64,000 nucleotides of DNA from Candidatus Freyarchaeum deiterrae. GTDB lineage: Archaea > Asgardarchaeota > Jordiarchaeia > Jordiarchaeales > Jordiarchaeaceae. The translations under genes were made by a program, and so were the position numbers. Positions 36,670 through 58,405 of this stretch are shown here, one piece after another (position 1 is the first letter of the stretch; each line of letters opens with the position of its first letter). The stretch lies in contig CP147778.1 in NCBI GenBank assembly GCA_037305845.1, forward strand, positions 2,848,001 through 2,912,000. The letters run 5' to 3'. The notes beneath the pieces were generated by a model. It was not told where the DNA came from. It searched no databases and saw only the letters and a program-made list of their open reading frames with translations.

Positions 36670-36897
36670 CTACTCATAAGCGAACTCCTCTGCGTAAATT
36701 ATGTACGTTGGTCTACCCCATTGTTTAAAGTCTTTTTTAATTATTTTTCCCTGCAGGATTACTTCGTCACCTTTACTGAAATTACCTTGCTTGTTAGAGC
36801 GAACCAGGATTTCTTTTGGAATTCCTTTAATTCCAATATTTTCTTCTAATTTTATGGCGAAATAAACACCATATAAATCTCCGTTGAAGAGAACTCT
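36670..36897 (-). pseudogene. Orphan truncated OB-like module, remnant of a further array paralog
   Basis: In frame behind the TAA of 36898..38427: RVLFNGDLYGVYFAIKLEENIGIKGIPKEILVRSNKQGNFSKGDEVILQGKIIKKDFKQWGRPTYIIYAEEFAYE*. Confidence 0.85.
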
Positions 36898-38427
36898 TTA
36901 ACTGCCAATTTGAAGTGACTCGTTATAGCAATGGTCTGCAAGAATTAGATACATTGGTTTTTTCCAATATCCTAGATTTGCTTTAATTATTTTTCCCTGT
37001 AGAATTACTTTATCGCCTTTCCTGAAATAACCTGCTCTTTCGGAGCAAACTAGAATTTGATGGGGAATTCCTTCAATGCCAATATTTCCTTCTAATCTCA
37101 TAGGAAAATAAGCTTCAACAAAACTTCCATTTCCTCTAGCTCTTGTCCTTGAGTCTCCCGTTACTGAACCTCGAATCATACCCCTGTATAATACTCGTCT
37201 CCTATCCGCTAACCCCATCTGGCTAAACTGAAGTGACTCGTTATAGCAATGGTCTGCAAGAATTAGATACATCGGTCTGTTCCAGGGTCTAGTTTCTGTT
37301 TCAAATATTTCCCCTGTCAAAATTACCCCATCACCTGTTGCAAAATAACCAAAGTCAAGAGTATCAACTAAAATTTTATCAGGAACTTCTTCAAAACCCT
37401 CTTCTAATTTCATGGTAAAATAAGTTCTCAGAAAACGCCCCTCACTACCACCAGCGCTCATTATCGATTCTTCGGTTACTGAGCCTCGAATCAGGCCTCC
37501 ATGTAATACTCGCATTCTCCTGAAATCTTTAGCCTCGCCAATCTGGAGTGATTCGTTATAGAACTGGTCTGCCTCAATTATATACATCGGTCTGTTCCAA
37601 CGTCTAAGATTCATTTCAAGTATTCGTCCTTGTAAAATTACTTTGTCACCTTTCCCGAAATAACCGTGCTTTTTACAGTGAACCAGAATTTCACTAGGAA
37701 CTCCTCCAATTCCAATATTTTCTTCCAATCTTATAACAAAATAATTTCCGTAAAACTCATTTCCTAAAAGCCCTGCTCTTGATTCTTTCGTTACTGAGCC
37801 TCGAATCATGCCTTTGAATACTAGTTTTCCTGTTGTTAGCCCTCCATCTCCGATCTGGAGTGATTCGTTATAGTAATGGTCTGCAACAATGTCAAACATC
37901 GGTCTACTCCATCGACTAAGATTTGTTTTGAATAGTTTCCCCTGTAAAACTACTTCGTCACCTTTGTCGAAGTAACCGAACTTGGAAGTGAGAACCAGAA
38001 TTTCTTCGGGAACGCCTTCAAAACCTTCTTCTTGTCTCATAGCAAAACAAACTTCAGAAAAATCATAAAGTGGAGAAGAAGAGTTAGTAGAAGGAGGGTT
38101 TAAAAAGTTTATAGGCGGGTATGTTGCTACAAACACTGAAGTGTGAATCAGCATTGATCCTTTCGTTACCAAACCTCTAATTGTACCTTCATACAGTACT
38201 GGTGTACTCGCTCCGCTCACGGCCGGCGGGCTGGGAGTAGGTATTATTTCGTAAACCGTTGGGTTCTCATCCTCTTTAATAACTGCTTCTTCCGAAGAGA
38301 CGTCTTCATCGTAAACGTAGTTCGGGTCGATAGGCTCGCCGCAGTGTGGACAAAACAGGGCACCATTCGGAACTTGTACGCCGCAGTAAGCGCACCACTT
38401 TGTTTCGGGAACCCTTTTCCTACTCAT
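36898..38427 (-). CDS. Zn-ribbon + 4x OB-fold-like repeat protein (array 1)
   Basis: CAYCG..CPHCGEP; four modules GxIRGxVT...F.M.LEE...EILV...GYF..GD.V.L.G...W.RPM..I.ADH.YNESLQ. Confidence 0.85.
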   Translation of the reverse strand: MSRKRVPETKWCAYCGVQVPNGALFCPHCGEPIDPNYVYDEDVSSEEAVIKEDENPTVYEIIPTPSPPAVSGASTPVLYEGTIRGLVTKGSMLIHTSVFVATYPPINFLNPPSTNSSSPLYDFSEVCFAMRQEEGFEGVPEEILVLTSKFGYFDKGDEVVLQGKLFKTNLSRWSRPMFDIVADHYYNESLQIGDGGLTTGKLVFKGMIRGSVTKESRAGLLGNEFYGNYFVIRLEENIGIGGVPSEILVHCKKHGYFGKGDKVILQGRILEMNLRRWNRPMYIIEADQFYNESLQIGEAKDFRRMRVLHGGLIRGSVTEESIMSAGGSEGRFLRTYFTMKLEEGFEEVPDKILVDTLDFGYFATGDGVILTGEIFETETRPWNRPMYLILADHCYNESLQFSQMGLADRRRVLYRGMIRGSVTGDSRTRARGNGSFVEAYFPMRLEGNIGIEGIPHQILVCSERAGYFRKGDKVILQGKIIKANLGYWKKPMYLILADHCYNESLQIGS

Positions 38428-38555
38428 CTTTTATCCCTCTATTATAAATAGTACCCTCGTTCTGTTAATTATTCTTTTTGATGAATGCAAAAAAACAAAG
38501 AGACTAAAAATTTTCACTATTCAGAAGCAGCAGAATAAATTCAATGAAGGATTCT
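38428..38555 (-). repeat. Conserved cassette spacer (operator/BRE-TATA/RBS)
   Basis: Minus strand TTTTTGCATTCATCAAAAAGAATAATTAACAGAA...AATAGAGGGATAAAAG-ATG. Confidence 0.8.
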
Positions 38556-40076
38556 TTAATTGCCAATTTGAAGCGATTCTTCATAGTAATGCTCTGCAAC
38601 AATTAGATACATCGGTTTTTTCCAATGTTTAAGATTTGTTTCAAGTATTTCCCCTTGCAAAATTACTTTATCTCCTATCCCGAAATAACCTACCTTTTTA
38701 GATTCAACTAGAATTTCGTCAGGAAGTCCTTTGATTCCAATATTCTCTTCTAATTTCATGGCAAAATAAGTTCCAGCAAAATCTCCATTTTCTGAGGTTT
38801 TTGTCTTTGATTCTCTCGTTACTGTACCTCGAATCGTACCTCTGAATACTTGTTTCCCTGACATCAACATTACAACGTCAATCTGAAGCGATTCATTATA
38901 GAAATGTTTTGCACTAATAAGATACATCGGTTTTTTCCAATGTTTAAGATTTGTTTCAAGTATTTCCCCTTCCAAAATTACTTTGTCACCTTTTCCGAAA
39001 TAACCGAAGTGGAAAGTTTGAACTAAAATTTCATCAGGAATTTCTGCAAAATTCTCTTCTAATTTCATGGCAAAATAAGTTCCAGCAAAAGCCGCTCCAT
39101 CAGCTCTTATTACTGATTCCCTTGTTACTGTACCTCGAATCATGCCTCTATGTAAAACTCGTTTACTCCTCATAGATTCAGCCTCGCCAATCTTGAGTGA
39201 TTCGTTGTAGAAATGGTCTGCTTGAACGATATACGACGGTCTTTCCCATTTTTTAAGAACTTTTTCAGTTATTTCTCCTTGTAAAATTACTTTGTCACCT
39301 TTTCCGAAATAACCCTGCTTGTGACAGTGAACCAAAATTTCATCAGGAATTCCTCCAATTCCAATACTTTCTTCCAATCGTATAACAAAATAATTTCCGT
39401 AAAACCTATCATTTCCTAAAAACCCAGTTCTTGATTCTTTCGTTACTGAACCTCTAATCATGCCTTTGAATAATCGTTTTCCTTCCGTCAGACCACCATC
39501 ACCAATTCGGAGTGATTCGTTATAGTAATGGTCCGCAACAATTAGATACATCGGTCCACTCCAATAACTAAGATATGTTTTGAATAGTTTCCCTTGTAAA
39601 ATTACTTCGTCCCCTTTTCCGAAATAACCAAAATTGGAAGAGAGAACAAGAATTTCATCGGGCCCGCCTTCCAAATTCTCTTCTAGTCTCACAACAAAAC
39701 AAACCTCAGAAAAAACTTGGTACAGAGGAGGGGCTACAAAAGTAGAATTTGCAAAGTTTATATTGGGATACGGGCCTATCAACACTGAAGTATGAATTGG
39801 CATTAATCCTTTAGTTACCAAACCTCGAATAGTACCTTCATACAATATCTGTGTGCTAGTTTCGCTTACGGTCGGCGGCCTAGAAATGGGAGTTATTTCG
39901 CCAACCCTCTGATTCTCGCCCTCATTAGTGACTATGTCTTTCACAGTGATTCTTTTATCGTAAGTTTGACTCAGGTTGAAGGGCTCACCGCAACGCGGAC
40001 AGAACGTGGCACCAATTGGAGCTTGGGTGCCGCAGTAAGCGCATTGCTTTACTCCAATAAACTTTTTCCCACTCAT
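38556..40076 (-). CDS. Zn-ribbon + 4x OB-fold-like repeat protein (array 1)
   Basis: CAYCG..CPRCGEP plus four modules. Confidence 0.85.
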   Translation of the reverse strand: MSGKKFIGVKQCAYCGTQAPIGATFCPRCGEPFNLSQTYDKRITVKDIVTNEGENQRVGEITPISRPPTVSETSTQILYEGTIRGLVTKGLMPIHTSVLIGPYPNINFANSTFVAPPLYQVFSEVCFVVRLEENLEGGPDEILVLSSNFGYFGKGDEVILQGKLFKTYLSYWSGPMYLIVADHYYNESLRIGDGGLTEGKRLFKGMIRGSVTKESRTGFLGNDRFYGNYFVIRLEESIGIGGIPDEILVHCHKQGYFGKGDKVILQGEITEKVLKKWERPSYIVQADHFYNESLKIGEAESMRSKRVLHRGMIRGTVTRESVIRADGAAFAGTYFAMKLEENFAEIPDEILVQTFHFGYFGKGDKVILEGEILETNLKHWKKPMYLISAKHFYNESLQIDVVMLMSGKQVFRGTIRGTVTRESKTKTSENGDFAGTYFAMKLEENIGIKGLPDEILVESKKVGYFGIGDKVILQGEILETNLKHWKKPMYLIVAEHYYEESLQIGN

Positions 40077-40204
40077 CTTTCAATCCTCTATTACGAATAG
40101 TAACCTCATTCAGTTAATTATTCTTTTTGAAGGATGCAAAAAACGAAGAAATGAACAATTTTCACCATTCAGAAGTATAATGATAAATTCAATAGAGAAT
40201 TTTT
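40077..40204 (-). repeat. Conserved cassette spacer
   Basis: Minus strand TTTTTGCATCCTTCAAAAAGAATAATTAACTGAA...AATAGAGGATTGAAAG-ATG. Confidence 0.8.
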
Positions 40205-41773
40205 TTAATCGCCAATTTGAAGTGACTCGTTATAGTACTGGTCTGCAATGATTAGATACATTGGCCTTTCCCAATGTCTAAAATTTGCTTTAAGTATTCT
40301 TCCCTGCAAAACTACTTCGTCACCTTTCCCGAAATAACCTATCCTTTCAGAGCGAACCAGAATTTCATCAGGAATTCCTGCAATTCCAATATTTCCTTCT
40401 AATTTCATGACAAAATAAACTTCAGTGGTGGTGTAATCACCCATACCAGGGGTAGAATGGTTTACAATCCTTGATCTTGAGTCTCTCGTAACCAAACCTC
40501 GAATTATACCTTTATATAATATCTGTTTTCTATTCACAAACCTCATATCGCTAAACTGTAGCGATTCATTAAAATAATGGTCAGCGATAATAGCATACAT
40601 TGTCCTGCCCCATCGATTAAGTGGCATTTTGAAGATTTTTCCCTGTAAAATTACTTCATCGCCTTTACCGAAATAGCCAAAGCTGCGAGTTTGGACTAAA
40701 ATTTTATCAGGAATTTCTTCAAAATCTTCTTCTAGTTTCATGACAAAAAGGGTTCTTTCAACAAAAAGCGTCATCTTAACGCCAGGACTTATTACTGATT
40801 CTTTCGCTACTGAACCTCGAATCTTACCTTCATATAATATTTTTTCGTAATCCATTGGTCCTTTATCGCCAATTTGGAGTGATTCATTATAGAAACGATC
40901 TGCATGAATGGCATATGATGGTTTACCCCATCGTCTAAGATTTGCTCCAAATATTCCTCCTTCTAAAATTACTCTATCGCCTATCCCAAAATAACCTACC
41001 TTATCGTAGCGAACCAGAATTTCGTCAGGCCCCCCTACAACATTTTCCTCTAGTTTCATGGCGAAACAAACTCCAGAAGTGACGTAAGTACCAAGTAGAG
41101 GGTTATTATGTACTGCAATTCTTGATTTTGAGTCTCTCCTTACTGAGCCTCGAATAACCCCTCTAAATAATGTTTGCTTTTTCTTCATCGATTGTTCATC
41201 GCCGGCCTGCAGTGATTCATTATAGTAGTGGTCCGCAATGATGGCGTACATTGGCTTATTCCAGTTTCTAAGATTTATTCTAAATATTCTTCCCTGTAAA
41301 GTTACTTTGTCACCTAATCCGAAATAACCAAATTTGGAGGTCTGAACCAGAACCTCGTTGGGGATTCCCTCAAAACCCTCTTCCAACCTCATAACAAACT
41401 TAGCCCCAGAAAAGCCGACATAAGGGATCGGAAGGGGCTCATAAAGATTTGAACCGTTAAAGAAGTTTGAGGTTCCCACCAACGGAGATGGAATCGTATC
41501 TGATTCTCCCGTTACCGAACCTCGCATCATACCCTCATATAATACCCTTACGCCTGTTTCAAGCACGGTAGGCGGACTGGGAGTTGGGATTATTTCGTCA
41601 ACCCTTAGATTCTCATCCTCTTTAATGACTGCTTCTTCCGGAGGGATGCTTTCATCGTAAACGTAATTGGGGTCAATAGGCTCACCGCAACGTGGACAGT
41701 ATAAAGCCCCATTTGGAATCTGGTAGCCATACGAAGCGCAACACCCCTTTTTAGGCTCCCTTTTTTCGCTCAT
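40205..41773 (-). CDS. Zn-ribbon (degenerate, CCASY) + 4x OB-fold-like repeat protein (array 1)
   Basis: CCASYG..CPRCGEP plus four modules. Confidence 0.85.
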   Translation of the reverse strand: MSEKREPKKGCCASYGYQIPNGALYCPRCGEPIDPNYVYDESIPPEEAVIKEDENLRVDEIIPTPSPPTVLETGVRVLYEGMMRGSVTGESDTIPSPLVGTSNFFNGSNLYEPLPIPYVGFSGAKFVMRLEEGFEGIPNEVLVQTSKFGYFGLGDKVTLQGRIFRINLRNWNKPMYAIIADHYYNESLQAGDEQSMKKKQTLFRGVIRGSVRRDSKSRIAVHNNPLLGTYVTSGVCFAMKLEENVVGGPDEILVRYDKVGYFGIGDRVILEGGIFGANLRRWGKPSYAIHADRFYNESLQIGDKGPMDYEKILYEGKIRGSVAKESVISPGVKMTLFVERTLFVMKLEEDFEEIPDKILVQTRSFGYFGKGDEVILQGKIFKMPLNRWGRTMYAIIADHYFNESLQFSDMRFVNRKQILYKGIIRGLVTRDSRSRIVNHSTPGMGDYTTTEVYFVMKLEGNIGIAGIPDEILVRSERIGYFGKGDEVVLQGRILKANFRHWERPMYLIIADQYYNESLQIGD

Positions 41774-41886
41774 CTTTCAACCCTCTATTGTGAATAGTCA
41801 CTAGTTCTATTAATTATTCTTTCGATTAATGCAAAGCACCGTAGAGATGAATAATTTCTCCTTTTTTCAACTGTATCGAAACAAAT
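41774..41886 (-). repeat. Conserved cassette spacer
   Basis: Minus strand CTTTGCATTAATCGAAAGAATAATTAATAGAA...AATAGAGGGTTGAAAG-ATG. Confidence 0.8.
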
Positions 41887-41927
41887 TCAATGGGGATATC
41901 TTCCATCGCCAATTGAAATGATTCATT
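41887..41927 (-). pseudogene. 3'-end remnant of a lost array paralog
   Basis: Minus strand AATGAATCATTTCA-ATTGGCGATGGAAGATATCCCCATTGA resembles the NESLQIGDG...H* tails of 54584 and 56557, with a 1-nt deletion. Confidence 0.7.
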
Positions 41928-41993
41928 AAGACGAGTTAATAAAAAGACGAGGGTATTAATTAAATTGTAAAAACTTGTTTCTTTCCGTGAGTT

Positions 41994-43049
41994 TTATTCG
42001 TATTGTTCTTTGAAGTAGGGAATTATTTTTTTACTCCACAGTTCGTATTGGCTTTTTCGGTGTTTTGTTGGTACCAGAAGTATGCATACGAAGTATTGGT
42101 TTCCTGCTTTGTAGAGTTTATCGAGTCTTTCGATGCAATTTTCCGGAGTACCGTAAATGAAGCGTTCCTCAACGGCTTCAAAGGGTATTTTCTTGGCGAA
42201 ATTCATAACCTTCTTTATTGACTCAGGGCTGTAGGTGAATTTATTAAGTCCGAACTCTTCTGGAATATGTATTCCTTTCTTATTCAGGGTCTGTGGCCAA
42301 AAGGCTGAAAGCATTTTTGCTGGTAATTCTATGGGGTTCGCTCCCTCCTCTTCCTCCTCCTTCTTCGATACGTATGCGTATATGGTATTTGCCTTCGTGA
42401 TTGTTTCAGGGTCTCTACCAATTTTCTTGGCGTGATTTTCTATTTCTTTCCAGAACTTTTTGTACTCGTCTGGAGTCAGTGCCTGAGGTAACCAGCCATC
42501 TCCTAGTTCTGCGGTTATCTCCCTTGTTTTGGGCGAGTTAGCTGCAATCCAGAAGGGTGGGTGTGGCTGTTGAAAAGGCAGGGGGAGCAGAAAAGCGTTT
42601 TTTAGTTTATAGAATTCGCCGTCATAGTTGATTGTGCCGCCGGAGAAAATTTTTTTGACAATTTCTATTGTTTCTCTCATTAGGCTTACTGGTTTATCCC
42701 ACATAATTTCGAAGGGCTTGATAGAAGTAGACTCCCCTGCCCCAATTCCTACTATTAGTCTCCCATTTGAAACGTGGTCTAATGTAACAATACTCTGAGC
42801 TAATGATGCAGGGTGTCTTCTAGCCGCGTTAACAACACTTATCCCCATGTTCAGTTTCGTCCTAGAGGCTATCCCCGCTAACGTTGTAAAAGGCTCCATT
42901 GCATCCCAAACTTTGATTCCGATACCTAACAGGTGATCCCCCACCCAAACAGATTCGAAGCCATTATTATTCGCGTAGGATACGGCATCATAAATATCGG
43001 ATAGAGGCGCATTGGGTAAATGCGCACCAAACTGTGGGGCTGGCGGCAT
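41994..43049 (-). CDS. LLM-class (F420/flavin-dependent) oxidoreductase
   Basis: GFESVWVGDH, RRHPA, LDHVSNGRLIVGIGAGE, LGDGWLP. Confidence 0.9.
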   Translation of the reverse strand: MPPAPQFGAHLPNAPLSDIYDAVSYANNNGFESVWVGDHLLGIGIKVWDAMEPFTTLAGIASRTKLNMGISVVNAARRHPASLAQSIVTLDHVSNGRLIVGIGAGESTSIKPFEIMWDKPVSLMRETIEIVKKIFSGGTINYDGEFYKLKNAFLLPLPFQQPHPPFWIAANSPKTREITAELGDGWLPQALTPDEYKKFWKEIENHAKKIGRDPETITKANTIYAYVSKKEEEEEGANPIELPAKMLSAFWPQTLNKKGIHIPEEFGLNKFTYSPESIKKVMNFAKKIPFEAVEERFIYGTPENCIERLDKLYKAGNQYFVCILLVPTKHRKSQYELWSKKIIPYFKEQYE

Positions 43050-43337
43050 AAATACTACCTGAAAATATTTTTAAAACTACGACTCTCTCTCTTTATAAAT
43101 CTATTTTTAAGTATCTTCTCTCCACAAGAAGGCTCTGTAAAGAAGCGTGAAGATAAGAGATTTTCATAGATGAAGCTCTCGCCTATGGGCGGACATCCAA
43201 AACTGTTACCTTGGGAAATGCAACCAAAAATTAGGATAAGATTCAAATCAGGATTAAATTGCTTAAAGCTAATAATCCACATTGTAATACGTGTGATGGG
43301 CATCAAATCTCAGAGTAAGGGCAGCCAAACTGTTCCC

Positions 43338-43613
43338 TTATTCTCTTATTTTTTTTCTTTTTTTGACTTTATAATAGTCTTCTGAATTTATCACTGCGTA
43401 TCCTTCATTCATCTTCGGTAAAACCTTTATAGTTCCTTTCCTTTTCGTAGGACTACAAGCGCCCACAGTACAGACGTAAACTAGTATTCTGTTCACGTTT
43501 TTTGTTCTGGGATCAAGATATTCCAGAGAGGAAATACTGCAATTCTCACAATCTAAACATGATTTTAACGCGGTTTCCTTTTTTTTACTCGTATCCGTCA
43601 CCTCACTCGCCAA
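43338..43613 (-). CDS. Small Cys-rich hypothetical protein
   Basis: CLDCENC...VCTVGAC, basic C-terminus; TTG start; hairpin just downstream. Confidence 0.45.
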   Translation of the reverse strand: MASEVTDTSKKKETALKSCLDCENCSISSLEYLDPRTKNVNRILVYVCTVGACSPTKRKGTIKVLPKMNEGYAVINSEDYYKVKKRKKIRE

Positions 43614-43884
43614 TTTATCTAATGGCTTCGGGCTAATAATATGTAGTCATTATCGAAGTAAAATGTTTTACGGTGTAATGTAAAATAGGCAATTGTATAG
43701 TAATAGTTAGGTAAGAGAGTAATTCAAGAAGTAGAAAAAATTTTGAAGACCAATCCCATTATGTGCCTTTCATAAACTAGATGAACATCTTGGAAAATGA
43801 AAATGTAGAGTGAAGAAGGCAAGGTACTGTATTCTAGCCATAATAGACATTTTGAACACTTTGCCTTTCAAGATTGGAGGTATA

Positions 43885-44925
43885 TCATAACTCTTTGAAG
43901 TAGGGAATTATCTTATCGCGGTAAATTTCAAACACCTTGTTGGGGTCAGGTCCTCGATTGAGAAAAGCAAAGTGTTTGACTCCCGCCTTAATGAAGGCTT
44001 CTATCTGGTCCATAACTTGGTCTACGGTGCCTATCACATTGAAATCCTGCGGCATACAGTCTGGAACTTTATCAAGGTTTTGAACCAGCTTCATAAGATC
44101 CTCGTTTGAGGGTGTAAACTTTTGAATAACCAACTCTTTCGGTATGTCGATGTTATACTCTTCCTTTAACTTATCTGGGAAAAGCAGAATTCCTCCTTTC
44201 ATGAATTCAACTCTCTTACAGGCGGTCTCAAAGTCGTCGGCAATCGCGGTCATACAATTGTAGCAGATATCAATCTGATCCATGCTTCTGCCGGCTTTCT
44301 TAGCACCCTGCTCTACGTCCTTAATGTGTTTGGCAATCAGATTCGGGGTCTCGTAGAACGGGAACCATCCATCAGCAATCTCTCCGGTAAGAGTTCTGGA
44401 TACTGGTCCATTCCCAGCAATGTAAATCGGAATAGTATCCTGAATGGGTTTAATCTGTAGAAATGCATCCTTAAGTTTGAAGAATTCGCCCCAATAATTC
44501 ACTGTTTTCTCTTTCCAAAGAAGACGCATAACCTCGACGAACTCTCTCATCTTTGAAACCGGTTTACAGGCATCGATGTTGAACATGGCGAAATTCATAG
44601 CCTCACCCGCACCCACACCAAACATCGCCCTACCGTTGGAAACCACATCCAGAGTCGCCAGAATATGCGCCATAACCGCAGGATGCCTACGATGGGGGTC
44701 AGAAACCGCAGTACACAATGTAACCCGGCTGGTGTTCAAAGCCATAGTCGTCAAAAATACAAAGGCATCATAAACCAGGCCTTGGGGAGGAATCGTGGTA
44801 AGGTGATCCGCATACCACAAACTATCAAAACCACACTGCTCAGCCTTCTTAGCACCCTCAATCGCGAGTTCCAACCTATACGTAGGAACAGGAATCGAGA
44901 AACCAAACTTGACTCCCATAGACAT
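43885..44925 (-). CDS. LLM-class (F420/flavin-dependent) oxidoreductase
   Basis: GFDSLWYADH, DPHRRHPA, LDVVSNGRAMFGVGAGE, IADGWFP. Confidence 0.9.
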   Translation of the reverse strand: MSMGVKFGFSIPVPTYRLELAIEGAKKAEQCGFDSLWYADHLTTIPPQGLVYDAFVFLTTMALNTSRVTLCTAVSDPHRRHPAVMAHILATLDVVSNGRAMFGVGAGEAMNFAMFNIDACKPVSKMREFVEVMRLLWKEKTVNYWGEFFKLKDAFLQIKPIQDTIPIYIAGNGPVSRTLTGEIADGWFPFYETPNLIAKHIKDVEQGAKKAGRSMDQIDICYNCMTAIADDFETACKRVEFMKGGILLFPDKLKEEYNIDIPKELVIQKFTPSNEDLMKLVQNLDKVPDCMPQDFNVIGTVDQVMDQIEAFIKAGVKHFAFLNRGPDPNKVFEIYRDKIIPYFKEL

Positions 44926-45028
44926 CTCTCCAAAATCTTAAGGGTATTCCCTCATTAAACGCCCAAATATAAAAATATTCGCACTGCTTACCTTCCTCCC
45001 TTATCTAGGATTGGGCAATTCCCATGAG

Positions 45029-45880: not shown

Positions 45881-45958
45881 TTCTCTTCCCTCAAAAAAAT
45901 TTTTGGAAACTTCCTATTACTGTACTTGTTTTATTAAAACATCTCACTCAAATAACTT

Positions 45959-48037: not shown

Positions 48038-48257
48038 AACACAAACCTTCCCTTTATTTTTTTTAAATCTTTTTAAATTAGAAAATTTGGATTTGGTACT
48101 TTAAGTGAGTTAAGCCAATTAGTACAAATCATACTTAATAAAGTTGGAAAAATTGTCCCAAAATACTTTTTTTAGAATAGGTTAGTGTTGTAGATAACTT
48201 TATAGCTTGTGTAAAAATACTGTTTAATCTTGGAAGCGTTTTTAGTGTCGGGATTTT

Positions 48258-49184: not shown

Positions 49185-49195
49185 GGTCTTTAGCG

Positions 49196-50698
49196 ATGAT
49201 TGAGGGCTTTGTAAGGCTTCTCCGAGAAAGAAACATTAGAGTAGGATTAGCGGAAACCATAGACGCCTGCAAAGCTTTTTCACTCTTGGAAGTAGATAAG
49301 GAGACAGTTAGAGAAGGTCTAGCTGCCTGCCTCATAAAAGAAGAAATGGACAGACCGGATTTCGACCACATTTTCAACCTCTATTTCTGCAACCAAATAC
49401 CGGAAAGCAAAAAGCCCCAACAACCAACCCCAACCCCGAAAGAATCTGAACTCACTAAGAGAAGTAGACAGGAACAGGGAACAGAGGGTTTGCGTCAGGA
49501 GGAAGATGCTCAGCAACCCCAGGCTCAGCAACTCGACCAGCAGAGGCAGCAGCAGGGAGTACTGGCAAGGTATGGAGGCATCAAAGGTATAGGAAAGGCA
49601 ATCGACGAGAATGATCTGGAAGGGGCTGCGAATCAACTCTCGGAAAGAATTCTCAGCCAGGCCCGAGACCCCGACGCCTTTGCCAAGCTGCTCAAAAACA
49701 TTATAGAGTACATGAAACTTTATGCGGGTTGGGCGGTGGAAGACACCGCAACTTTTGAGGATTACATGGAGAGAATTAAAGAGGTTCTAAACAAAACCCA
49801 GAGAAAGTACCTCGAATTATTCCGAGAAGAATACCCCCTGGAAGACCTCATCTCCAAGCTTGTGAAACTAGATTATTCGAACATAGAAGAGTTGGACTTC
49901 AACAAGTATGCCGGAGACCTAGTCTTTCTGGTTAACAACGTGGATAAAATAGAGAAGACCATAAAGAAACTGGCACAACAGCTAGCATCCAAGCTTTCAC
50001 GAAGAGAGAAGCTAGCGGATAGGGGCAAGATAAACATCCGCAAATCCATTCGCAAATCCCTGGAATATGGCGGCGTAATGGTGAAGCTGGATTTCAAGAG
50101 GAGGAAGGTTCAAAAACCGGAAATCATGCTGCTCTGCGATGTTTCCGGAAGCTGCGAGTGGATATCCGGATTCTTCATAACCCTGATGCTGGGAATCAAA
50201 AAGGCTTTCAGCGAAGTTAAGGGTTACATCTTCACAGACCACTGCTGGACGGTAACCAAAGCCTTGGAAACGGGCATGGCTGAGAGACTATTCCAAGAAA
50301 TAAGCCACTGGTGGGACCTCTACCGGGGAGGCGCAAGCAGCAACATGGAAACCGCGTTCGAAGACTTCCTTAAGAAAACCCAGAGCGACTTAACCAAGAA
50401 AACCACCATTATAATTCTCAGCGATTGCAGAGACTATCTTGGAAGAAGAGAAGTATACGGCAGCACCAGAGGGCGACCCCGCTCAGCCGAAAAAATAGGC
50501 AAACTGGTAAAAGCGTCAAAAAGACTAATGATTCTTAACCCAGAGGACCCCAAGTTCTGGAATACCGGCGACTCCGTGGTAGACTACTACATTCAGGCAG
50601 GGGCAGAGTGCTACCCCGTTAAAAACCTTCAGGAACTTGCCAACATGGTGATTCTAGCAGCGAAAAAAGACTTAAATCCCTACACCTATACAAAATAA
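49196..50698 (+). CDS. vWA domain protein (CoxE-like)
   Basis: GFVRLLR..., Q-rich linker, INIRKSIR, LCDVSGS MIDAS, IILSD, LNPE. Confidence 0.9.
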   Translation: MIEGFVRLLRERNIRVGLAETIDACKAFSLLEVDKETVREGLAACLIKEEMDRPDFDHIFNLYFCNQIPESKKPQQPTPTPKESELTKRSRQEQGTEGLRQEEDAQQPQAQQLDQQRQQQGVLARYGGIKGIGKAIDENDLEGAANQLSERILSQARDPDAFAKLLKNIIEYMKLYAGWAVEDTATFEDYMERIKEVLNKTQRKYLELFREEYPLEDLISKLVKLDYSNIEELDFNKYAGDLVFLVNNVDKIEKTIKKLAQQLASKLSRREKLADRGKINIRKSIRKSLEYGGVMVKLDFKRRKVQKPEIMLLCDVSGSCEWISGFFITLMLGIKKAFSEVKGYIFTDHCWTVTKALETGMAERLFQEISHWWDLYRGGASSNMETAFEDFLKKTQSDLTKKTTIIILSDCRDYLGRREVYGSTRGRPRSAEKIGKLVKASKRLMILNPEDPKFWNTGDSVVDYYIQAGAECYPVKNLQELANMVILAAKKDLNPYTYTK

Positions 50699-50732
50699 GT
50701 TCAATACTATTTCTCAAAATGGGTGAACTAAT

Positions 50733-51257
50733 ATGGATATTTTTGAGGCAATAAAAAATAGGAGAAGCATCAGAGACTATAATCCGAGCAAAAAGGTGCC
50801 CAAGGACGCGATAGAGAAAATAGTTGACGCTGCAAGATGGGCTCCCTCAGCCGGCAACCAACAGCCAATAGAGGTTGTGGCGGTTTCAGAGAAAGAAAAA
50901 AGAGAGAAGCTGGTCGCAGCATCTGGAAACGCTCCCTACCTCAAAGACTCTCCAGTGGCTCTGGTAGTATGTGTCAATCATAATAAGTACGCTAAGGGAT
51001 ACGCTAACGCCGTCTCATTTTTTATGCCCATGGACGCATCAGCTGCAATGCAGAACATGATGCTCGCAGCCTACGCACAAGGCCTAGGAACCTGCTGGGA
51101 TTCCGTTCTCAACAAAAGTGTGATAAGAGAACTACTGAACATCCCCGAATACGTAGAACCGTTCAGCATCCTAGCACTAGGCTACCCGTCAAAGATACCC
51201 GAAAAACCACCTACCAGAAGAAAAATCGAAGAAATGATCCACTGGGACACCTACTAA
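50733..51257 (+). CDS. Nitroreductase family protein
   Basis: RRSIR, WAPSAGNQQP, QNMMLAAYAQGLGTCW. Confidence 0.92.
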   Translation: MDIFEAIKNRRSIRDYNPSKKVPKDAIEKIVDAARWAPSAGNQQPIEVVAVSEKEKREKLVAASGNAPYLKDSPVALVVCVNHNKYAKGYANAVSFFMPMDASAAMQNMMLAAYAQGLGTCWDSVLNKSVIRELLNIPEYVEPFSILALGYPSKIPEKPPTRRKIEEMIHWDTY

Positions 51258-51393
51258 AAGCAGCAGCATAAACAGCCGAAAAACAGGCAAACTTCACACG
51301 TTTCTTTTTATTATCTATTTTTGTCTCGACAAGATTTCTCAAATAGCTAAGCATTAAAACATGATTGTAACATTATTAATTTGAGGTTGAGCC

Positions 51394-52512
51394 ATGACCA
51401 CATTCATTCCCACTAATTCCAAGAGCATAATCCTCAAAAGAAATTTTGCCGACGGCTGGTTCCTCGAGAAATACGCCATGAACATTTACCGCGGATGCCA
51501 ACACGCCTGCGAATACTGCGACGGTAGATCCCAAAAATACTATCTAGACTTGGATATCGCAAACAAAATCTACGTCAAGGTCAACGCCCCGGAGCTAGTG
51601 AAAAAAGGGCTGAAAAACAAAGAGAAAGGAATAGTAGCCGTTGGAGGTGGAATAGGCGACTCCTACCAACCAGCAGAGAAAAAGTACGAATTAACAAGAA
51701 AAGTGCTAGAAGTTCTAAGAGAATTAGAATTTCCAGCCTTCATTTTAACCAAATCCAGCCTAGTAGATAGAGACATCGATTTACTCGAAAAAATAAATGA
51801 GCAAAGTCTAGCTCTGGTCGCCCTAACCATCACGACCCTAGATGATGATGTCTGGAAAACCTGGGAGCCACGAGCATCTCCCCCAGAAGAAAGATTTGGC
51901 ACAATTGGAAAATTTTCAAGAGCTGGTGTTCCAACAGGAGTGGTAATGATGCCCCTTCTGCCATTCATCTCCGATACTGCAGACTCCATAGAACAACTGG
52001 TCTCCCGAGCCAAAGAGGAGGGAGCGAGTTTTGTTCTCGTATCAGGTTTAACTCTGAGAGACCGACAGAGAGACTACTACTACCAAAAACTGAAAGAAAA
52101 GTATCCCGACCTCATCCCAAAATACAACCAAATTTACGGTGAGAGCGGATACTCACCAAGTCAAGAATACATGGAAAAATTGAACGGAATAGTTCTGCAA
52201 GTTTGCAGAAAGTATGAAATGCCGCCCCGAATCCCCCACAAATTTTTCCACGGAAAAATCGGAATAAAAGACGAAATCTCACACGTACTATCCCAAATAG
52301 GGTACCTAATGGAACTGACCGGAAAAAGAGGAAGCTCGTACAGAAAAGCAGCCAACCAAGTTTTCAAAACCACAGAAGATATAACCAAACTCTCAAAGGA
52401 AGGAAGAATCACCGAAATTTCTGGAGTAGGCGAAAAAATAGGAAAAGTAATAGACGAAATAATACAAACCAGCGAAAGCGAACACTATCTGAAATTAATG
52501 AAACTCAAGTAG
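51394..52512 (+). CDS. SplB/Rv2578c-like radical SAM protein fused to a PolX-type 8-kDa HhH domain
   Basis: YRGCQHACEYC, DSYQPAE, LTKS..V.RDID, WEPRASPP; C-terminal YRKAA...ISGVGEKIGKVIDEII. Confidence 0.88.
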   Translation: MTTFIPTNSKSIILKRNFADGWFLEKYAMNIYRGCQHACEYCDGRSQKYYLDLDIANKIYVKVNAPELVKKGLKNKEKGIVAVGGGIGDSYQPAEKKYELTRKVLEVLRELEFPAFILTKSSLVDRDIDLLEKINEQSLALVALTITTLDDDVWKTWEPRASPPEERFGTIGKFSRAGVPTGVVMMPLLPFISDTADSIEQLVSRAKEEGASFVLVSGLTLRDRQRDYYYQKLKEKYPDLIPKYNQIYGESGYSPSQEYMEKLNGIVLQVCRKYEMPPRIPHKFFHGKIGIKDEISHVLSQIGYLMELTGKRGSSYRKAANQVFKTTEDITKLSKEGRITEISGVGEKIGKVIDEIIQTSESEHYLKLMKLK

Positions 52513-52570: not shown

Positions 52571-52685
52571 TTTTATTCCATACTTTGAAGTTGAGTAGGA
52601 ACTCATCAACCTCTACGTTGTTTTTGCATTTAACAAAAAGAATAACTAATAGAACGCGGGACTATTCGTTATAGAGGGTTAAAAT
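52571..52685 (+). repeat. Conserved cassette spacer
   Basis: TTTTTGCATTTAACAAAAAGAATAACTAATAGAA...ATAGAGGGTTAAAAT-ATG. Confidence 0.8.
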
Positions 52686-53543
52686 ATGAGTAGGAAAAAG
52701 GTTACCGGAATAAAGGTGTGCGCTTCCTGTGGTACCGAGACGCCGAGTGATGCCTTGTATTGCCCGCATTGCGTTGAGCCTATCGACCCAAGTTACTTGT
52801 ACGGTGAAAATCTCTTTTCAGAAGGTTCCTCCGTTGAAGGGAGAGAAGTGACCAGAGAAGAACTATCTATAAAACCTGGTTCTCAGAATATGTCGGGAAT
52901 ATTCCCATACCTAATACCATATCAAACATTATATGAAGGTGTGATTCAAGGGCTAGTAACTGGAGAATTAATGACAAATTTAGATAGAAATGAACATTAT
53001 AATGGAAGTTATTTTACTATTAAATTGGAAGAAGACTTTGAGGGAGTTCCTAAAGAAATCCTAGTTTCAGTCAGACTAAATTACCTACGAATAGGCGATA
53101 AAGTAACTTTACAAGGGAAAATAATCAAAGAAGTTCTTAAAAAATGGAGAAAACCAAATTATCTAATTCTCGCAGACCGCGTCTATAATGAATCCCTTAA
53201 TATTGGCACTGAAGTATTAATGGTTTCAAAACAAGTGATATATAAAGGCATAATTCGAGGTTTGGTAACAGAAGGCTCAAGATTGTTAATGACAAGACCT
53301 TCTTTTAATTTGGGGTCTTCTTTTTTGATGAAACTAGATGAAAATATGGGAATTGCAGAGATTCCTGATGAACTTCTAGTTCAAACTAGTAGGGGTTATT
53401 TCAGAAAAGGCGATAAAGTAATTCTGGAAGGAAAAATATTTAGAATTACTCTTAAAAAAATAGAAAGACCAACGTATGCAATTAAAGTAGACCATTTCTA
53501 TAATGAATCGCTTCAGATTGGCGATGGGGGAATTGTCAATTGA
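52686..53543 (+). CDS. Zn-ribbon + 2x OB-fold-like repeat protein (array 2)
   Basis: CASCG..CPHC plus two modules. Confidence 0.85.
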   Translation: MSRKKVTGIKVCASCGTETPSDALYCPHCVEPIDPSYLYGENLFSEGSSVEGREVTREELSIKPGSQNMSGIFPYLIPYQTLYEGVIQGLVTGELMTNLDRNEHYNGSYFTIKLEEDFEGVPKEILVSVRLNYLRIGDKVTLQGKIIKEVLKKWRKPNYLILADRVYNESLNIGTEVLMVSKQVIYKGIIRGLVTEGSRLLMTRPSFNLGSSFLMKLDENMGIAEIPDELLVQTSRGYFRKGDKVILEGKIFRITLKKIERPTYAIKVDHFYNESLQIGDGGIVN

Positions 53544-53655
53544 ATTTATTCAGATAAATTTGAATCTAGGAATAATTCATATCTATGGTGTTTTTGCATG
53601 CACCGAAAAGAATAATTGGAAAGATTATGTTTTAATTAAAATAGAGGGTTGAAAG
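53544..53655 (+). repeat. Conserved cassette spacer
   Basis: TTTTTGCATGCACCGAAAAGAATAATT...AATAGAGGGTTGAAAG-ATG. Confidence 0.75.
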
Positions 53656-54474
53656 ATGAGCGAGAATAGGAAAAAGACCAAAAGAAGTTACCAAAAACCC
53701 GCGGTTCCCACTGTTTTAAGCACGGCCAGCGGTGACGCAACACAAACATTATTATATGAAGGTACTTTCCGAGGTCTGGTAACTGGTGAATCGGTCGATA
53801 TTCCAACCAATATGATAGGAGCCCAAAAAATTGATACTGGAGTCACCCTTTCGAGTTCTTCGAATTTAAATATCTTCACTCCTAACACTTGGCACGGCGG
53901 AGCTCAAGCCAAGTTTGTCATGAAACTGGAAGAAAACATTGAGGGAGTTCCTGATGAAATTCTAGTCCAAACCACCCAGTTTGGTCACTTCGGTAAAAAC
54001 GATAAAGTAATTCTGGAAGGAAAAGTATTCAGGATAAATTTTAAACATTGGGATAAACTATTCTACTCCCTTATTGCAGAACATTACTATAACGAATCAC
54101 TACAGATTGGCGATGAAGGATTCCGGGAAAATGAACAAGAAGTATACAAAGGCACTATCCGAGGTTCGGTGAATAAAGAATCAAGAACGCATATTAACGT
54201 GTATTATAAATCAAAACCTCACCATCCTCACAGTCGTCCAGCTCCCTCTTCTCCTCACTATTCTTTTGGGGATATTTATTTTACCATGAACTTAGAAAAA
54301 ATTGGAATCGCAGGGGTTCCGGATGAAATTCTAGTTAAATTAACAAAACCGTACGAATTCATAAAAGGCGATAAGTTAGTTTTGCAAGGAAAAGTAGTTA
54401 AAAGAAATCTTAAACATTGGAATAGACCGATGTATATTATTTTTGCAGAAAATTACGACAAAGAATCTCCATAG
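53656..54474 (+). CDS. 2x OB-fold-like repeat protein lacking the Zn ribbon (array 2)
   Basis: Two modules; N-terminus has no CxxC pairs. Confidence 0.85.
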   Translation: MSENRKKTKRSYQKPAVPTVLSTASGDATQTLLYEGTFRGLVTGESVDIPTNMIGAQKIDTGVTLSSSSNLNIFTPNTWHGGAQAKFVMKLEENIEGVPDEILVQTTQFGHFGKNDKVILEGKVFRINFKHWDKLFYSLIAEHYYNESLQIGDEGFRENEQEVYKGTIRGSVNKESRTHINVYYKSKPHHPHSRPAPSSPHYSFGDIYFTMNLEKIGIAGVPDEILVKLTKPYEFIKGDKLVLQGKVVKRNLKHWNRPMYIIFAENYDKESP

Positions 54475-54583
54475 ATTGGATACCTTGAATCGTAAAAAAT
54501 TATTTATCCCTTATGTGTTTATGCGTTTACCGAAATGGGTAATTAATATGATGATGGTACTAATCATGATTGAGGGTTGAAAG
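54475..54583 (+). repeat. Conserved cassette spacer, diverged copy
   Basis: TTTATGCGTTTACCGAAATGGGTAATTAATA...GTACTA...TTGAGGGTTGAAAG-ATG. Confidence 0.65.
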
Positions 54584-55480
54584 ATGAGCAGAAAAAATGT
54601 TTCCGAAGCAAATGAGTGCGTTCACTGCGGTAAACCGGTTCCGAGTGGTGCCGAGTTCTGTCCAAATTGCGGTGAGCCCGTCGAGGAGAATTCGATGCAT
54701 GATGAAAGCACATCTTCAGAAGAAGAGATGGCGCCCGTTGAGAAAAAGGAAGAGACCGGTAAAAGTTATGACTTGTCCGCTAACCCCTTTGTTCCAAAAC
54801 AGGACAGCAGTCAGGTTCCAAAAAAGCCCAGCATCAAGGGAGAACAAGTATCGTATAATGGTACTATTCGAGGTTCAGTAACACAAGAATCAAAAAATTT
54901 TCTTAACACTCCAGGAGAAGTTTTTTTTCAGGGAGTTCGTTTTTCCATAAAATTAGAAGAAAATGTTGGAATCGAAGAAATTCTTAATGAACTTACAGTC
55001 TTCAATTTCACGTTTGTATTTATGGGGATAGGTGACAAAGTAATTCTACAAGGAAGAGTAATTAAAAATTTTGATGAATCGGGTAGAGCAGGGTATTACA
55101 TTAGTGCAGACCATTTTTATAACGAATCACTTCAGATTGGCGATGAAGGATTTAGGCAAAAAACGTATACATTATACGAAGGTGTGACCCAAGGTTTAGT
55201 AACAAGGGAGCCAAAAATAAGTGTCGATCCAGGAAACTTTTTTTTAAATATTCAGTTTCCCGTGAAATTAGTCGAAAATACCGGAATTAAAGAAGTTCCC
55301 ACCGAAATCCTAGTTCAAACCAAAAAGCCGGGTTACTTTAGAATAGGTGATAAAGTAATTCTACAAGGAAAAATACTTAGAAAAGACCTCAAACAATGGG
55401 GCAAACCAATGTACGTATTCGAAGCAGACCACTTCTATAACGAATCACTCCAGATCGGCGACGGAGAAATTATCCGTTGA
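54584..55480 (+). CDS. Zn-ribbon + 2x OB-fold-like repeat protein (array 2)
   Basis: CVHCG..CPNCGEP plus two modules. Confidence 0.85.
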   Translation: MSRKNVSEANECVHCGKPVPSGAEFCPNCGEPVEENSMHDESTSSEEEMAPVEKKEETGKSYDLSANPFVPKQDSSQVPKKPSIKGEQVSYNGTIRGSVTQESKNFLNTPGEVFFQGVRFSIKLEENVGIEEILNELTVFNFTFVFMGIGDKVILQGRVIKNFDESGRAGYYISADHFYNESLQIGDEGFRQKTYTLYEGVTQGLVTREPKISVDPGNFFLNIQFPVKLVENTGIKEVPTEILVQTKKPGYFRIGDKVILQGKILRKDLKQWGKPMYVFEADHFYNESLQIGDGEIIR

Positions 55481-55593
55481 ATTTGTTTTAATACTTTTGA
55501 GTGGAGGAATTTATTCATCGCTTCGGTTTTTTTGCATTTACCAAAAGAATAATTAATAGAAAGAGCCCTCTATCTGTAGTAGAGGGTTGAAAG
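55481..55593 (+). repeat. Conserved cassette spacer
   Basis: TTTTTGCATTTACCAAAAGAATAATTAATAGAA...GTAGAGGGTTGAAAG-ATG. Confidence 0.8.
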
Positions 55594-56445
55594 ATGAGTA
55601 CAAAAAAGGAGCTTTGCGCTTATTGCGGCACACAAGTTCCAAGTGGTGCCCTGTACTGTCCACACTGCGGTGAACCTACTGACACAAGTTCCGAGTATGA
55701 TGAAGAAATCTCTTCTGAAGGGGCATTTTTTGGGGAGGAGAAAGAGACTGGCAAAGGTGAAGAAATAACTTCCGTTCCCATTATTTCAAGCACACCTAGC
55801 GAGCGTGGAACACGAGTATTATATAAAGGTATGATTCGAGGTTCAGTAGCAAGTGAATCAACACTGAAGCTTTCACCCGAAGGGCGTAGTGTGAATCTTC
55901 GTGAAGTTTATTTTGTTATGAAATTAGAGGAAAAAATTGGAATTGAAGGAATCCCCGAAGAAATTCTGGTTCTCACTCGAAATTTTGGTTACTTCGGGAT
56001 TGGTGATAGAGTAATTTTGCAGGGAAAAATACTTAAAACAGTCCTTAAAAAATGGGAAAGACCAATGTATACCATTCTCGCATACGATTTCTATAATGAA
56101 TCACTCCAGATCGGCGATGAAAAATTAATGAGGGGAAAACAAGTATTATATGAAGGTACGATTCGAGGTTTAGTAACGAAAGGATCAATAATAAATGTTT
56201 CAGGACATTTGCGGTTTTTTGTAACTTATTTCGCCATAAAATTAGAAGAAAATATTGGAATTCCAGGACTTCCAGACGAAATTCTAGTTCGCTATGACAG
56301 CCAAGGCTATTTTAGGACAGGGGATAGAGTAATTTTGCAGGGAAAAATACTTAAAACAGTTCTTAAAAAATGGGAAAGACCAATGTATGCCATACAGGCA
56401 GGACGTTTCTATAACGAAACACTTCAAGTTGGAAATAGGTTCTGA
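55594..56445 (+). CDS. Zn-ribbon + 2x OB-fold-like repeat protein (array 2)
   Basis: CAYCG..CPHCGEP plus two modules. Confidence 0.85.
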   Translation: MSTKKELCAYCGTQVPSGALYCPHCGEPTDTSSEYDEEISSEGAFFGEEKETGKGEEITSVPIISSTPSERGTRVLYKGMIRGSVASESTLKLSPEGRSVNLREVYFVMKLEEKIGIEGIPEEILVLTRNFGYFGIGDRVILQGKILKTVLKKWERPMYTILAYDFYNESLQIGDEKLMRGKQVLYEGTIRGLVTKGSIINVSGHLRFFVTYFAIKLEENIGIPGLPDEILVRYDSQGYFRTGDRVILQGKILKTVLKKWERPMYAIQAGRFYNETLQVGNRF

Positions 56446-56556
56446 ATTTATCAGGATACTTGGAATGAGGAAATCATTCATTCTTTCTGCGTTTTGCATT
56501 TATCAAAAAGAATAACTAATAGAAAGAGGGTACTACTCATAATAGAGGGTTAAACT
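56446..56556 (+). repeat. Conserved cassette spacer
   Basis: TTTTGCATTTATCAAAAAGAATAACTAATAGAA...GTACTA...AATAGAGGGTTAAACT-ATG. Confidence 0.8.
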
Positions 56557-57423
56557 ATGAGTATAATAAAGGATCTTTGCGCTTACTGCGGCACCCAAGT
56601 TCCAAGCGGCGCCCTGTACTGTCCACGTTGCGGCGAGCCCATTGACCCAAGTTCTTCATATGACGAAGGCAACTCCTCTGAAAGAGCACTAGAGGAGGAA
56701 GCGGAAGAGACTGGTCAAAGTTATAAATTTGCCCCAAATCCATTTGTTCCAGACATGTCTAGCATCGAGATAACCAAAGTATTATACGAAGGCATGATTC
56801 GAGGCTCAGTAACAGGCGAATCAACAGTGAGGCCTATATATAACTGGTTGGGTAAGCGTTATATGGATTTTCGCGCAGTTTTTTTTGTTATGAGATTAGA
56901 AGAAAGCTTTGAACGAATTCCTAATGAAATTTTAGTTAAAACTTACGACTTTGGCTATTTTGGTGTAGGCGATAAAATAATTTTACAAGGAAAAATACTT
57001 AAAACAATTCTTAAACAATGGGGCAGAACAATATACCTAATTAAGGCAGACCATTTCTATAATGAAACACTTCAAATTGGAGATACGATATTCGGGATAA
57101 GAACACAAGAATTGTATAAGGGTATTATTCGAGGTTCAGTAACCAAAGAACAAAGAATAGATATTGATAACAATAGGAACTTATTTCAAACATATTTTTT
57201 CATGAAATTAGTAGGAGATATTGGAGTCGCAGGACTTCCCGACGAAATTCTAGTTCGCTATTGCAAGGCGGGTTATTTCAGGATAGGTGATAAAGTAATT
57301 TTACAAGGAAAAATATTTAAAACAATTCTTGAACGATGGGGCAAACCAATGTACGTAATTGAAGCAAATCATTTCTATAACGAATCACTCCAGATTGGCG
57401 ATGGAGAACTTCTTATCCATTAA
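56557..57423 (+). CDS. Zn-ribbon + 2x OB-fold-like repeat protein (array 2)
   Basis: CAYCG..CPRCGEP plus two modules. Confidence 0.85.
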   Translation: MSIIKDLCAYCGTQVPSGALYCPRCGEPIDPSSSYDEGNSSERALEEEAEETGQSYKFAPNPFVPDMSSIEITKVLYEGMIRGSVTGESTVRPIYNWLGKRYMDFRAVFFVMRLEESFERIPNEILVKTYDFGYFGVGDKIILQGKILKTILKQWGRTIYLIKADHFYNETLQIGDTIFGIRTQELYKGIIRGSVTKEQRIDIDNNRNLFQTYFFMKLVGDIGVAGLPDEILVRYCKAGYFRIGDKVILQGKIFKTILERWGKPMYVIEANHFYNESLQIGDGELLIH

Positions 57424-57538
57424 TTTTATTCTGATACTTTTGAAATTTGGGAAATTATTCATCTCTACGGTGTTTTTGCAGTTATAAAAAAGAATAATAA
57501 ATAGAACAGGGATATTGCTCGCAATAGAGGGTTGAAAA
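57424..57538 (+). repeat. Conserved cassette spacer
   Basis: TTTTTGCAGTTATAAAAAAGAATAATAAATAGAA...AATAGAGGGTTGAAAA-ATG. Confidence 0.8.
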
Positions 57539-58405
57539 ATGAGTGTAAAAAAGGGATTATGCGTTTACTGTGGCAACAAAGTTCCAAGTGATGCCCAATT
57601 CTGTCCACACTGCGGTGAACCTACCGACACGAGTTCCGAGTATGATGAAGAAATCTCTTCCGGAGAAACATTTGTTGGGGAGGAGAAAGAGACTAGCAAA
57701 AGTGAAGAAATAACTCCTGTTCCCACTATTTCAAGAGAGCCCAGTGGCCATGGAACACGAGAAATCTATAAAGGTACGATTAGAGGTTTAGTGGCGGGTG
57801 AATCAACACTTTCATTCACTTTAAAAGGGAATTTCGTGAATCCTAGCGAAGTTTATTTTGTTATGAAATTAGAGGATAGATTTGGAATTGCAGGAATTCC
57901 CGACGAAATTCTGGTTCAAACTTTAAACTTCGGTTATTTCGGGATGGGCGATAAAGTAGTTTTGCAAGGAAAAATACTTGAAACAGTTCTTAAAAAATGG
58001 GAAAGACCAATGTATACTATTCTTGCGCGCGATTTCTATAATGAATCACTTCAGGTTGGAGTAGAGGGATTAATGGGGAAAAAACAAAAAATATATGAGG
58101 GTACGATTCGAGGTTTGGTAACGAAAGGATCAATAATAAGTGTAGCAGGTGGAGGCATTAGTCGTTTTTTTGCAACTTATTTCGCCATAAACTTGAAAGA
58201 AAACAGTGGAATTGCAGGAATCCCCGACGAAATTCTAGTTCGCTATAACAAGAAAGGTCATTTCAGGATAGGTGATAAAGTAATTTTACAGGGAAGAATA
58301 GTTAAAGGGGATATTAGAAGCTGGAGTAGACCAATGTATCTAATTGAAGCAAACCATTTCTATAATGAATCACTCCAGTTTGGCGATTTGGGATTTAAAT
58401 ATTGA
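57539..58405 (+). CDS. Zn-ribbon + 2x OB-fold-like repeat protein (array 2)
   Basis: CVYCG..CPHCGEP plus two modules. Confidence 0.85.
   Translation: MSVKKGLCVYCGNKVPSDAQFCPHCGEPTDTSSEYDEEISSGETFVGEEKETSKSEEITPVPTISREPSGHGTREIYKGTIRGLVAGESTLSFTLKGNFVNPSEVYFVMKLEDRFGIAGIPDEILVQTLNFGYFGMGDKVVLQGKILETVLKKWERPMYTILARDFYNESLQVGVEGLMGKKQKIYEGTIRGLVTKGSIISVAGGGISRFFATYFAINLKENSGIAGIPDEILVRYNKKGHFRIGDKVILQGRIVKGDIRSWSRPMYLIEANHFYNESLQFGDLGFKY

Follow-up and report, generated by a model that had tools for sequence, protein, structure and literature searches.

Two tandem arrays of zinc-ribbon/OB-fold proteins as a candidate diversified binder repertoire in an Asgard archaeon

One hallmark of eukaryotic immunity is the diversified family of positively selected intracellular binders, of which, to our knowledge, there is little documentation in Asgard archaea. 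The staphylococcal superantigen-like (SSL) arrays are a familiar case of tandem paralogs with a diversified OB domain, and the B subunits of AB5 toxins form cyclic OB oligomers with sites at the subunit junctions; both are secreted and act on animal hosts. One adaptable face of the OB fold serves proteins, nucleic acids, sugars, and small molecules, and in OBodies, engineered binders made from the OB domain of AspRS, a constant scaffold carries a variable sheet face and loop (PMC3896448). Here we analyze two tandem arrays of zinc-ribbon/OB proteins in a window of 64,000 nucleotides (contig CP147778.1, positions 2,848,001 to 2,912,000) from Candidatus Freyarchaeum deiterrae, a soil Asgard archaeon whose genome is a single contig of 3,576,204 bases with 40.7% GC. 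The arrays constitute a candidate diversified OB binder array that resembles the OB domains of SSB and RPA structurally and falls outside SSB, RPA, known defence systems, and diversity-generating retroelements (DGRs). We put at about 0.5 the probability that they form a repertoire of cytoplasmic binders specific to the lineage, evolving by birth and death on one OB scaffold and directed at varying, probably foreign, macromolecules. Like the SSL arrays, they consist of tandem paralogs with a diversified OB domain; unlike SSL and AB5 proteins, they are cytoplasmic and archaeal, they have no sequence link to either, and neither is among the top structural matches. Unlike the OBodies, which are artificial monomers, they are natural and tandem, and part of their face is predicted to lie in a self-assembly interface.

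The term module is used here for the repeated small OB-fold domain, the array genes are numbered g1 to g9, and coordinates are positions in the window unless given as genomic. An initial annotation of this DNA had proposed nine genes with 24 modules, and both the count and the coordinates hold. Array 1 comprises three four-module genes on the minus strand, g1 (36898-38427, 509 aa), g2 (38556-40076, 506 aa), and g3 (40205-41773, 522 aa), and array 2 comprises six two-module genes on the plus strand (52686-58405), g4 (52686-53543, 285 aa), g5 (53656-54474, 272 aa), g6 (54584-55480, 298 aa), g7 (55594-56445, 283 aa), g8 (56557-57423, 288 aa), and g9 (57539-58405, 288 aa). The nine genes all retain intact reading frames, with synonymous distances of 0.45-1.6 between paralogs, and a module hidden Markov model (HMM) matches each of the 24 modules at E values of 1e-35 to 1e-47. 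A zinc ribbon and an acidic, proline-containing linker precede the modules; the ribbon has the annotated CxxC-x10-CxxC pattern, is degenerate in g3, where the second cysteine is a tyrosine, and is absent from g5, whose two modules have long loops and whose C-terminal tail is truncated. The proteins also lack transmembrane segments, as had been noted: nowhere does a 19-residue Kyte-Doolittle mean reach 1.6, and no segment looks like a membrane helix.

The OB fold proposed for the modules is borne out by modelling and fold search. In the AlphaFold2 model of the two-module protein g7 (predicted local distance difference test score [pLDDT], 89.8; predicted TM-score [pTM], 0.83), each module has five strands and a long beta1-beta2 hairpin and is modelled without a helix after beta3. 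The top fold match of a g7 module is an archaeal RPA OB domain (Z score, 9.4; root mean square deviation [rmsd], 2.5; 79 residues aligned), with which SSB/PriB tie (Z about 9 [9.0-9.4]; rmsd, 2.4-3.3; 79-89 aligned), at sequence identities of 10-20%. Solved chains match one module at a time and none reproduces the module-module arrangement, which in itself is no proof of a new assembly. Sequence searches against Pfam, NCBIfam, PHROGs, PADLOC, and the PDB return names only for the zinc ribbon and for HEAT repeats, and no description of this OB family was found in the literature searched, in keeping with the earlier failure to recognize a named family. An OB family reported recently (10.64898/2026.10.28.762692) carries PF21473, for which the array modules have no match.

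SSB/PriB (PF00436) and archaeal RPA (PDB 3e0e, 2k5v, 5wqv, 6bhx) share with the modules the five-stranded OB barrel (Z about 9; rmsd, 2.4-2.9 over 80-90 residues), and SSB/PriB in addition attain a four-OB unit with one, two, or four domains per chain. In contrast to SSB and RPA, the module model has no helix between beta3 and beta4, the face is variable rather than conserved, and the family is dispensable and lineage-restricted; the array proteins also extend no more than about 10 residues beyond the last module, without the acidic C-terminal tail of SSB. The predicted array dimer is face-to-back, and SSB chains with two OB domains could be aligned through a single domain; inter-module packing may also differ from that of SSB. 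The window genes give no match to PF00436 at E values up to 1, and 2 of 75 family members match it (best E, 0.025); identity as SSB was rejected on the missing profile match and the missing acidic tail. The tandem OB sensors HIN-200 and POT1 (PDB 4l5t, 3rnu, 8sh0), which appear in the fold search list, likewise have a small N-terminal module followed by two OB domains in tandem, but they are matched one domain at a time (whole-model TM-score about 0.25-0.3; rmsd, 16-17) and do not share the inter-domain geometry. A known defence system was rejected on the absence of both a PADLOC match and the gene context of a system. A DGR target was rejected as well, since RVT_1 is unmatched in the complete genome and array DNA finds only diverged paralogs elsewhere in it, at 64-79% identity.

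The models also suggest how modules come together. The four-module model of g2 has a pTM of 0.81, with disorder only in the long module-1 loop (pLDDT under 50), and therefore places the four modules in a fixed arrangement as a compact unit. A predicted homodimer of g7 module pairs scored 0.46, compared with 0.00 for the best control, a mark attained by 20 of 30 solved homodimers and by 1 of 23 single chains; contact agreement between runs was at least 87% and partner pLDDT at least 81. These predictions support g7 module pairs binding as a homodimer. In the dimer model, module 1 of one chain packs its beta2-beta3-beta5 face onto module 2 of its partner, at the GYF motif and the C-terminal tail; the stems of the hairpins pair up, and close to the axis equivalent Glu/Gly positions come together. 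The predicted interface takes in the conserved exposed residues P227, E229, L231, W260, P263, G238, Y239, Y273, L277, and G280 (g7 numbering, used for all sites), and odd and even modules differ in their signatures near it. The working unit is accordingly predicted to be four modules, supplied by one four-module chain or two two-module chains and packed face to back, which probably close into a pseudo-four-fold ring. Such a ring would account for the module counts and for the conservation of exposed residues such as L231, W260, Y239, and L277, which would pack between modules while the variable loops stay exposed.

A constant scaffold with variable loops, as first annotated, is also what the substitution rates indicate. 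In tree-free pairs, the ratio of nonsynonymous to synonymous rates (omega) is 0.10 in the core but 1.33 in the hairpin (P = 0.011) and 1.24 at the start of loop L34, with values of 0.29 for the ribbon and 0.74 for the linker; over 45 modules, the one-ratio omega is 0.47. When recombination was coarsely controlled for by excluding indel loops and giving each third of the module its own tree, the likelihood ratio test (LRT) statistic was 30.8 for M1a/M2a and 19.9 for M8a/M8; in six neutral simulations passed through the same pipeline, it never exceeded 2.1. The sites selected were A214 (beta2), R233 (beta3), K259 (loop L45), and A266 and Q268 (both beta5); R233, A266, and Q268 were found again in two disjoint sequence sets, one from this genome and one from two metagenome loci, and the same positions are also the most variable among distant Asgard relatives. 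The five sites, chosen post hoc, have an omega of 1.98 over 22 pairs. An excess of nonsynonymous change at exposed sites, as anticipated by the initial annotation, is thus found, and positive selection at a few of them is likely. The barrel core and ribbon are under purifying selection, with the hairpin and a few exposed positions changing at or above the neutral rate. At similar dS, likely array orthologs diverge about 5 times faster than the proteins encoded beside them: between g3 and B524, its likely ortholog, dN is 0.28 at a dS of 0.53, compared with a dN of 0.04-0.09 at a dS of 0.24-0.61 for flanking enzyme genes.

Gains and losses of array genes, also proposed earlier, are evident among relatives. 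Four of five congeners lack the family, and the fifth (G006) keeps it only in decayed form, as short single modules, some of them broken. In one array-free congener (G007), the metabolic block that separates the arrays is syntenic and both array sites are empty, and in congeneric assemblies G007-G010 the radical SAM gene adjoins an LplA-like gene with no module between them. Two metagenome loci, at about 88% identity in nucleotide sequence, have arrays in the same places but of different content, with genes of 1+4+2 modules in L002 and 4+2+2+4 in L003; L101, where the array again occupies these sites, has two four-module genes and an empty cassette, and in L102 a four-module gene without a ribbon lies at a further site. 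In homolog P0012, the two g7-type modules occur in swapped order, and identical tracts of 52 and 44 bases (median, 15) between adjacent modules of g2 and g1, respectively, are consistent with gene conversion. The orphan module of the initial annotation (36670-36897, minus strand, 75 sense codons that follow the g1 stop in the same frame) is present and matched by the HMM, though only at HMM positions 26-92; because its first strand and a start codon are missing, it is a partial remnant. It ends like the last (third) module of homolog P0009 and is most readily interpreted as the stump left by deletion of a paralog gene. The sequences show each gene as a self-contained cassette of upstream element, ribbon, linker, and two or four modules, and such cassettes have been duplicated, deleted, moved, and shuffled through recombination.

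The family seems to be restricted to Asgard archaea. HMMER, run in full over 1.84 billion representatives, found 81 matches, mainly stand-alone proteins of 100 or 200 residues, the named ones belonging to Helarchaeota, Hodarchaeota, or unclassified Promethearchaeota; close homologs occur only in Freyarchaeota/Jordarchaeaceae. Of 400 genomes of the Asgard phylum, 13 have a module match, in single copy in most and including a 119-residue branch of stable length. This distribution, together with the absence from four of five congeners, led us to reject identity as archaeal RPA, a near-universal, conserved replication gene. No relatives of the module were found in phage records or IMG/VR contigs, and gene neighbourhoods are not conserved across the family. 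One distant genome that encodes methyl-coenzyme M reductase (MCR), G127, has at least 12 modules, and its five-gene, nine-module cluster (L060:6431-10573) represents an independent second expansion in a distant Asgard lineage. The same genome has scattered single copies, one of them near the mcr genes (L065:5305-5607). The cluster is interrupted by an LplA-like gene, and such a gene also lies inside the arrays of L002 and L003; a functional link was rejected because LplA adjoins the radical SAM gene in array-free congeners and is absent from the genome studied here.

Taken together, a constrained scaffold, variable exposed sites, cassette structure, rapid gain and loss, and a second Asgard expansion agree with a binder repertoire that keeps pace with changing targets. 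None of the outcomes that the initial annotation had named as refuting its proposal was observed. In such a repertoire, four variable hairpins and variable rim residues would form a composite binding surface, different in each paralog, which may recognize changing and probably foreign macromolecules. Proteins would be likelier targets than generic single-stranded DNA, because module net charge spans -7 to +7 and the conserved aromatics are explained by self-assembly. As no catalytic or effector domain was found in the array proteins, they could sequester their target or hand it on via the zinc ribbon.

Several observations weigh against this repertoire. The missing effector domain is one; the neighbours of the arrays are metabolic rather than defence genes, and PADLOC profiles leave OB-only members unmatched and give only generic HEAT matches for a HEAT-fused paralog, and no sign was found of the link to mobile elements or defence suggested initially. 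The ring geometry was read from a list of contacts. Site models on a single tree gave LRT statistics of 164 with loops and 38 without, but we set this result aside and do not rely on it, because neutral simulations with recombination on a single tree gave 6-35. The face class defined a priori has an omega of 0.79, below 1; among the 11 best-supported pairs, omega at the five selected sites falls to 1.49 (P = 0.07, not significant); and three of these sites, 214, 259, and 266, lie in the predicted self-interface. Finer-scale conversion within segments could explain part of the selection signal, and loop misalignment is a possible source of it. Variation of array content within the population was not seen either: in five other assemblies (2021-2024 runs), array 1 DNA is 100% identical over the parts covered, with the caveat that the five may come from one site and that contigs drop rare variants. 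This identity therefore points to slow diversification and not to a switch within the population.

Among the alternatives, a panel of single-stranded nucleic acid binders, as raised in the initial annotation, would derive from an SSB/RPA-like ancestor, with loops that set sequence or structure preference, and could serve host RNA regulation or the sensing of foreign DNA or RNA in the manner of HIN-200 or POT1. Every best structural match is a nucleic acid-binding OB domain, RPA and MCM also combine zinc ribbons with OB folds, the counts of one, two, and four modules are reminiscent of the SSB four-OB unit, and a conserved Trp in L45 has basic flanking residues. We nevertheless regard this as unlikely, given the low identity to those structures, the module-module arrangement that solved chains do not match, the spread of charge, and the RPA-like genes present separately in the genome. 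The conserved Trp and conserved face residues fall in the predicted module-module interface, and this placement of the surface aromatics weakens a simple single-stranded DNA/RNA reading.

It is conceivable, if rather improbable, that the expansion is largely neutral and that a dispensable, stable domain behind a promoter-ribbon cassette was amplified by unequal recombination, its surfaces drifting and its core kept only for folding. The losses among congeners, the frequent stumps, orphan module, empty cassette, and chimeric fusions, the face and linker omegas below 1, and the capacity of recombination to mimic positive selection all agree with this; nine intact frames at such synonymous distances with so constrained a core, a selection signal that survives separate segment trees and returns at the same sites in two sequence sets, and the second expansion in the MCR-encoding lineage do not. 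Very unlikely, in our estimation, is that the variable residues tune self-assembly through pairing of modules or paralogs, or give shape to small-molecule pockets where subunits meet, and do not serve to recognize foreign macromolecules. In favour of this are the predicted interface between chains, which takes in sites 214, 259, and 266 and part of the hairpin, the odd/even signatures beside it, and the metabolic neighbours, but R233, D235, S236, Q268, and the long module-1 loops (pLDDT under 50) lie outside the listed contacts, and the neighbourhoods are not kept across the family.

Relatives elsewhere in the 3.58-Mb genome place the ribbon in a broader context. Beyond the 24 modules, the HMM finds only the orphan and one paralog, in which HEAT repeats are fused to the same zinc ribbon and two OB modules (G000:C1:313150-315096, minus strand; locus L001:10151-12091). 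Behind this tenth gene lie an array-type upstream cassette and a frameshifted ribbon/RING-like remnant (genomic 312761-313030). A second protein (G000:C1:2249290-2250012, minus strand) joins array cassette, ribbon, and linker to a copy of the CDC48 N-domain, 84% identical to that of the adjacent CDC48 gene, and is possibly a dominant adaptor or a recent chimera. At least nine open reading frames in the genome terminate in a near-identical RING-like motif (for example, genomic 141999-145130, 364655-368650, 3009695-3013444, and 3418874-3419659), several with an array-related zinc ribbon in front, and the nearest in-genome relatives of the array ribbon are those that precede RING-like domains. 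Three E2 genes are present. A link between ribbon and ubiquitin machinery is, by analogy, speculative. Nematode F-box and MATH-BTB adaptors (PMC4334554) offer a comparable arrangement of a constant small N-terminal module, a positively selected binding domain, and birth-death turnover; here the ribbon is under purifying selection, though lost or degenerate in some members, and, as a further likeness, the genome holds the three E2 enzymes and ribbon relatives before RING-like domains. The domains, however, are unrelated, and only ten genes are involved; the likeness is an evolutionary analogy and not homology. That the arrays are an antibody-like Asgard repertoire, in which the ring's four hypervariable hairpins bind foreign proteins and the ribbon hands the target to ubiquitin/RING or CDC48 machinery, is a long shot; if true, it would give archaea a counterpart of the substrate-adaptor immunity of eukaryotes. 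The family is small, soluble, and confidently modelled, with natural variants, so a ligand can be sought directly, and a four-module OB assembly with variable loops would be a natural counterpart to engineered OB binders. Should the ligand be a host molecule, or should there be none, this would still be an undescribed Asgard OB family repeatedly expanded by lineage.

The separate cassettes of the initial annotation are supported. All nine genes are preceded by their own conserved upstream element of about 115 bp, and its promoter role is suggested by sequence. In array 1 (minus strand), the element of g1 (38428-38541) is promoter-like and has a ribosome-binding site, and those of g2 and g3 lie at 40077-40189 and 41774-41887, the latter with the stump of a module 3' end ahead of it. 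On the plus strand, the element of g4 (52572-52684) is followed by those of g5 to g9 (53543-53655, 54475-54583, 55480-55593, 56445-56554, and 57424-57537). Outside the arrays, the element occurs at only two genome sites, before the ribbon/RING-like remnant and before the CDC48 N-domain fusion. A 20-base piece of it recurs exactly, once, at 47187-47206, upstream of a membrane-protein gene (47297-48037).

Between the arrays, the resident metabolic block (41994-52512), which is outside the OB family and is the block syntenic in the congener lacking both arrays, encodes LLM oxidoreductases, a CoA transferase, AAA/vWA proteins, a nitroreductase, and a radical SAM-HhH protein. The radical SAM-HhH gene beside the empty site is frameshifted in three congeneric assemblies (L095:7145-8319 in G007; L079; L080), by decay or sequencing error. 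Two membrane-protein genes beside the arrays, 47297-48037 and 35856-36608, evolve fast, with identities of 57% and 61% and omegas of 0.43 and 0.37, next to enzymes with about 90% identity and an omega of about 0.1. Near array 2, positions 60305-62434 encode a secreted beta-helix repeat surface protein with a GC content above that of its flanks. Just past array 2, a conserved run of three genes for a 485-aa protein of unknown function, a 116-aa multi-zinc-ribbon protein, and a 235-aa double-zinc-ribbon protein is found at G000:C1:2911284-2913841 (from window position 63284), L002:14397-16948, and L004:1087-3604.

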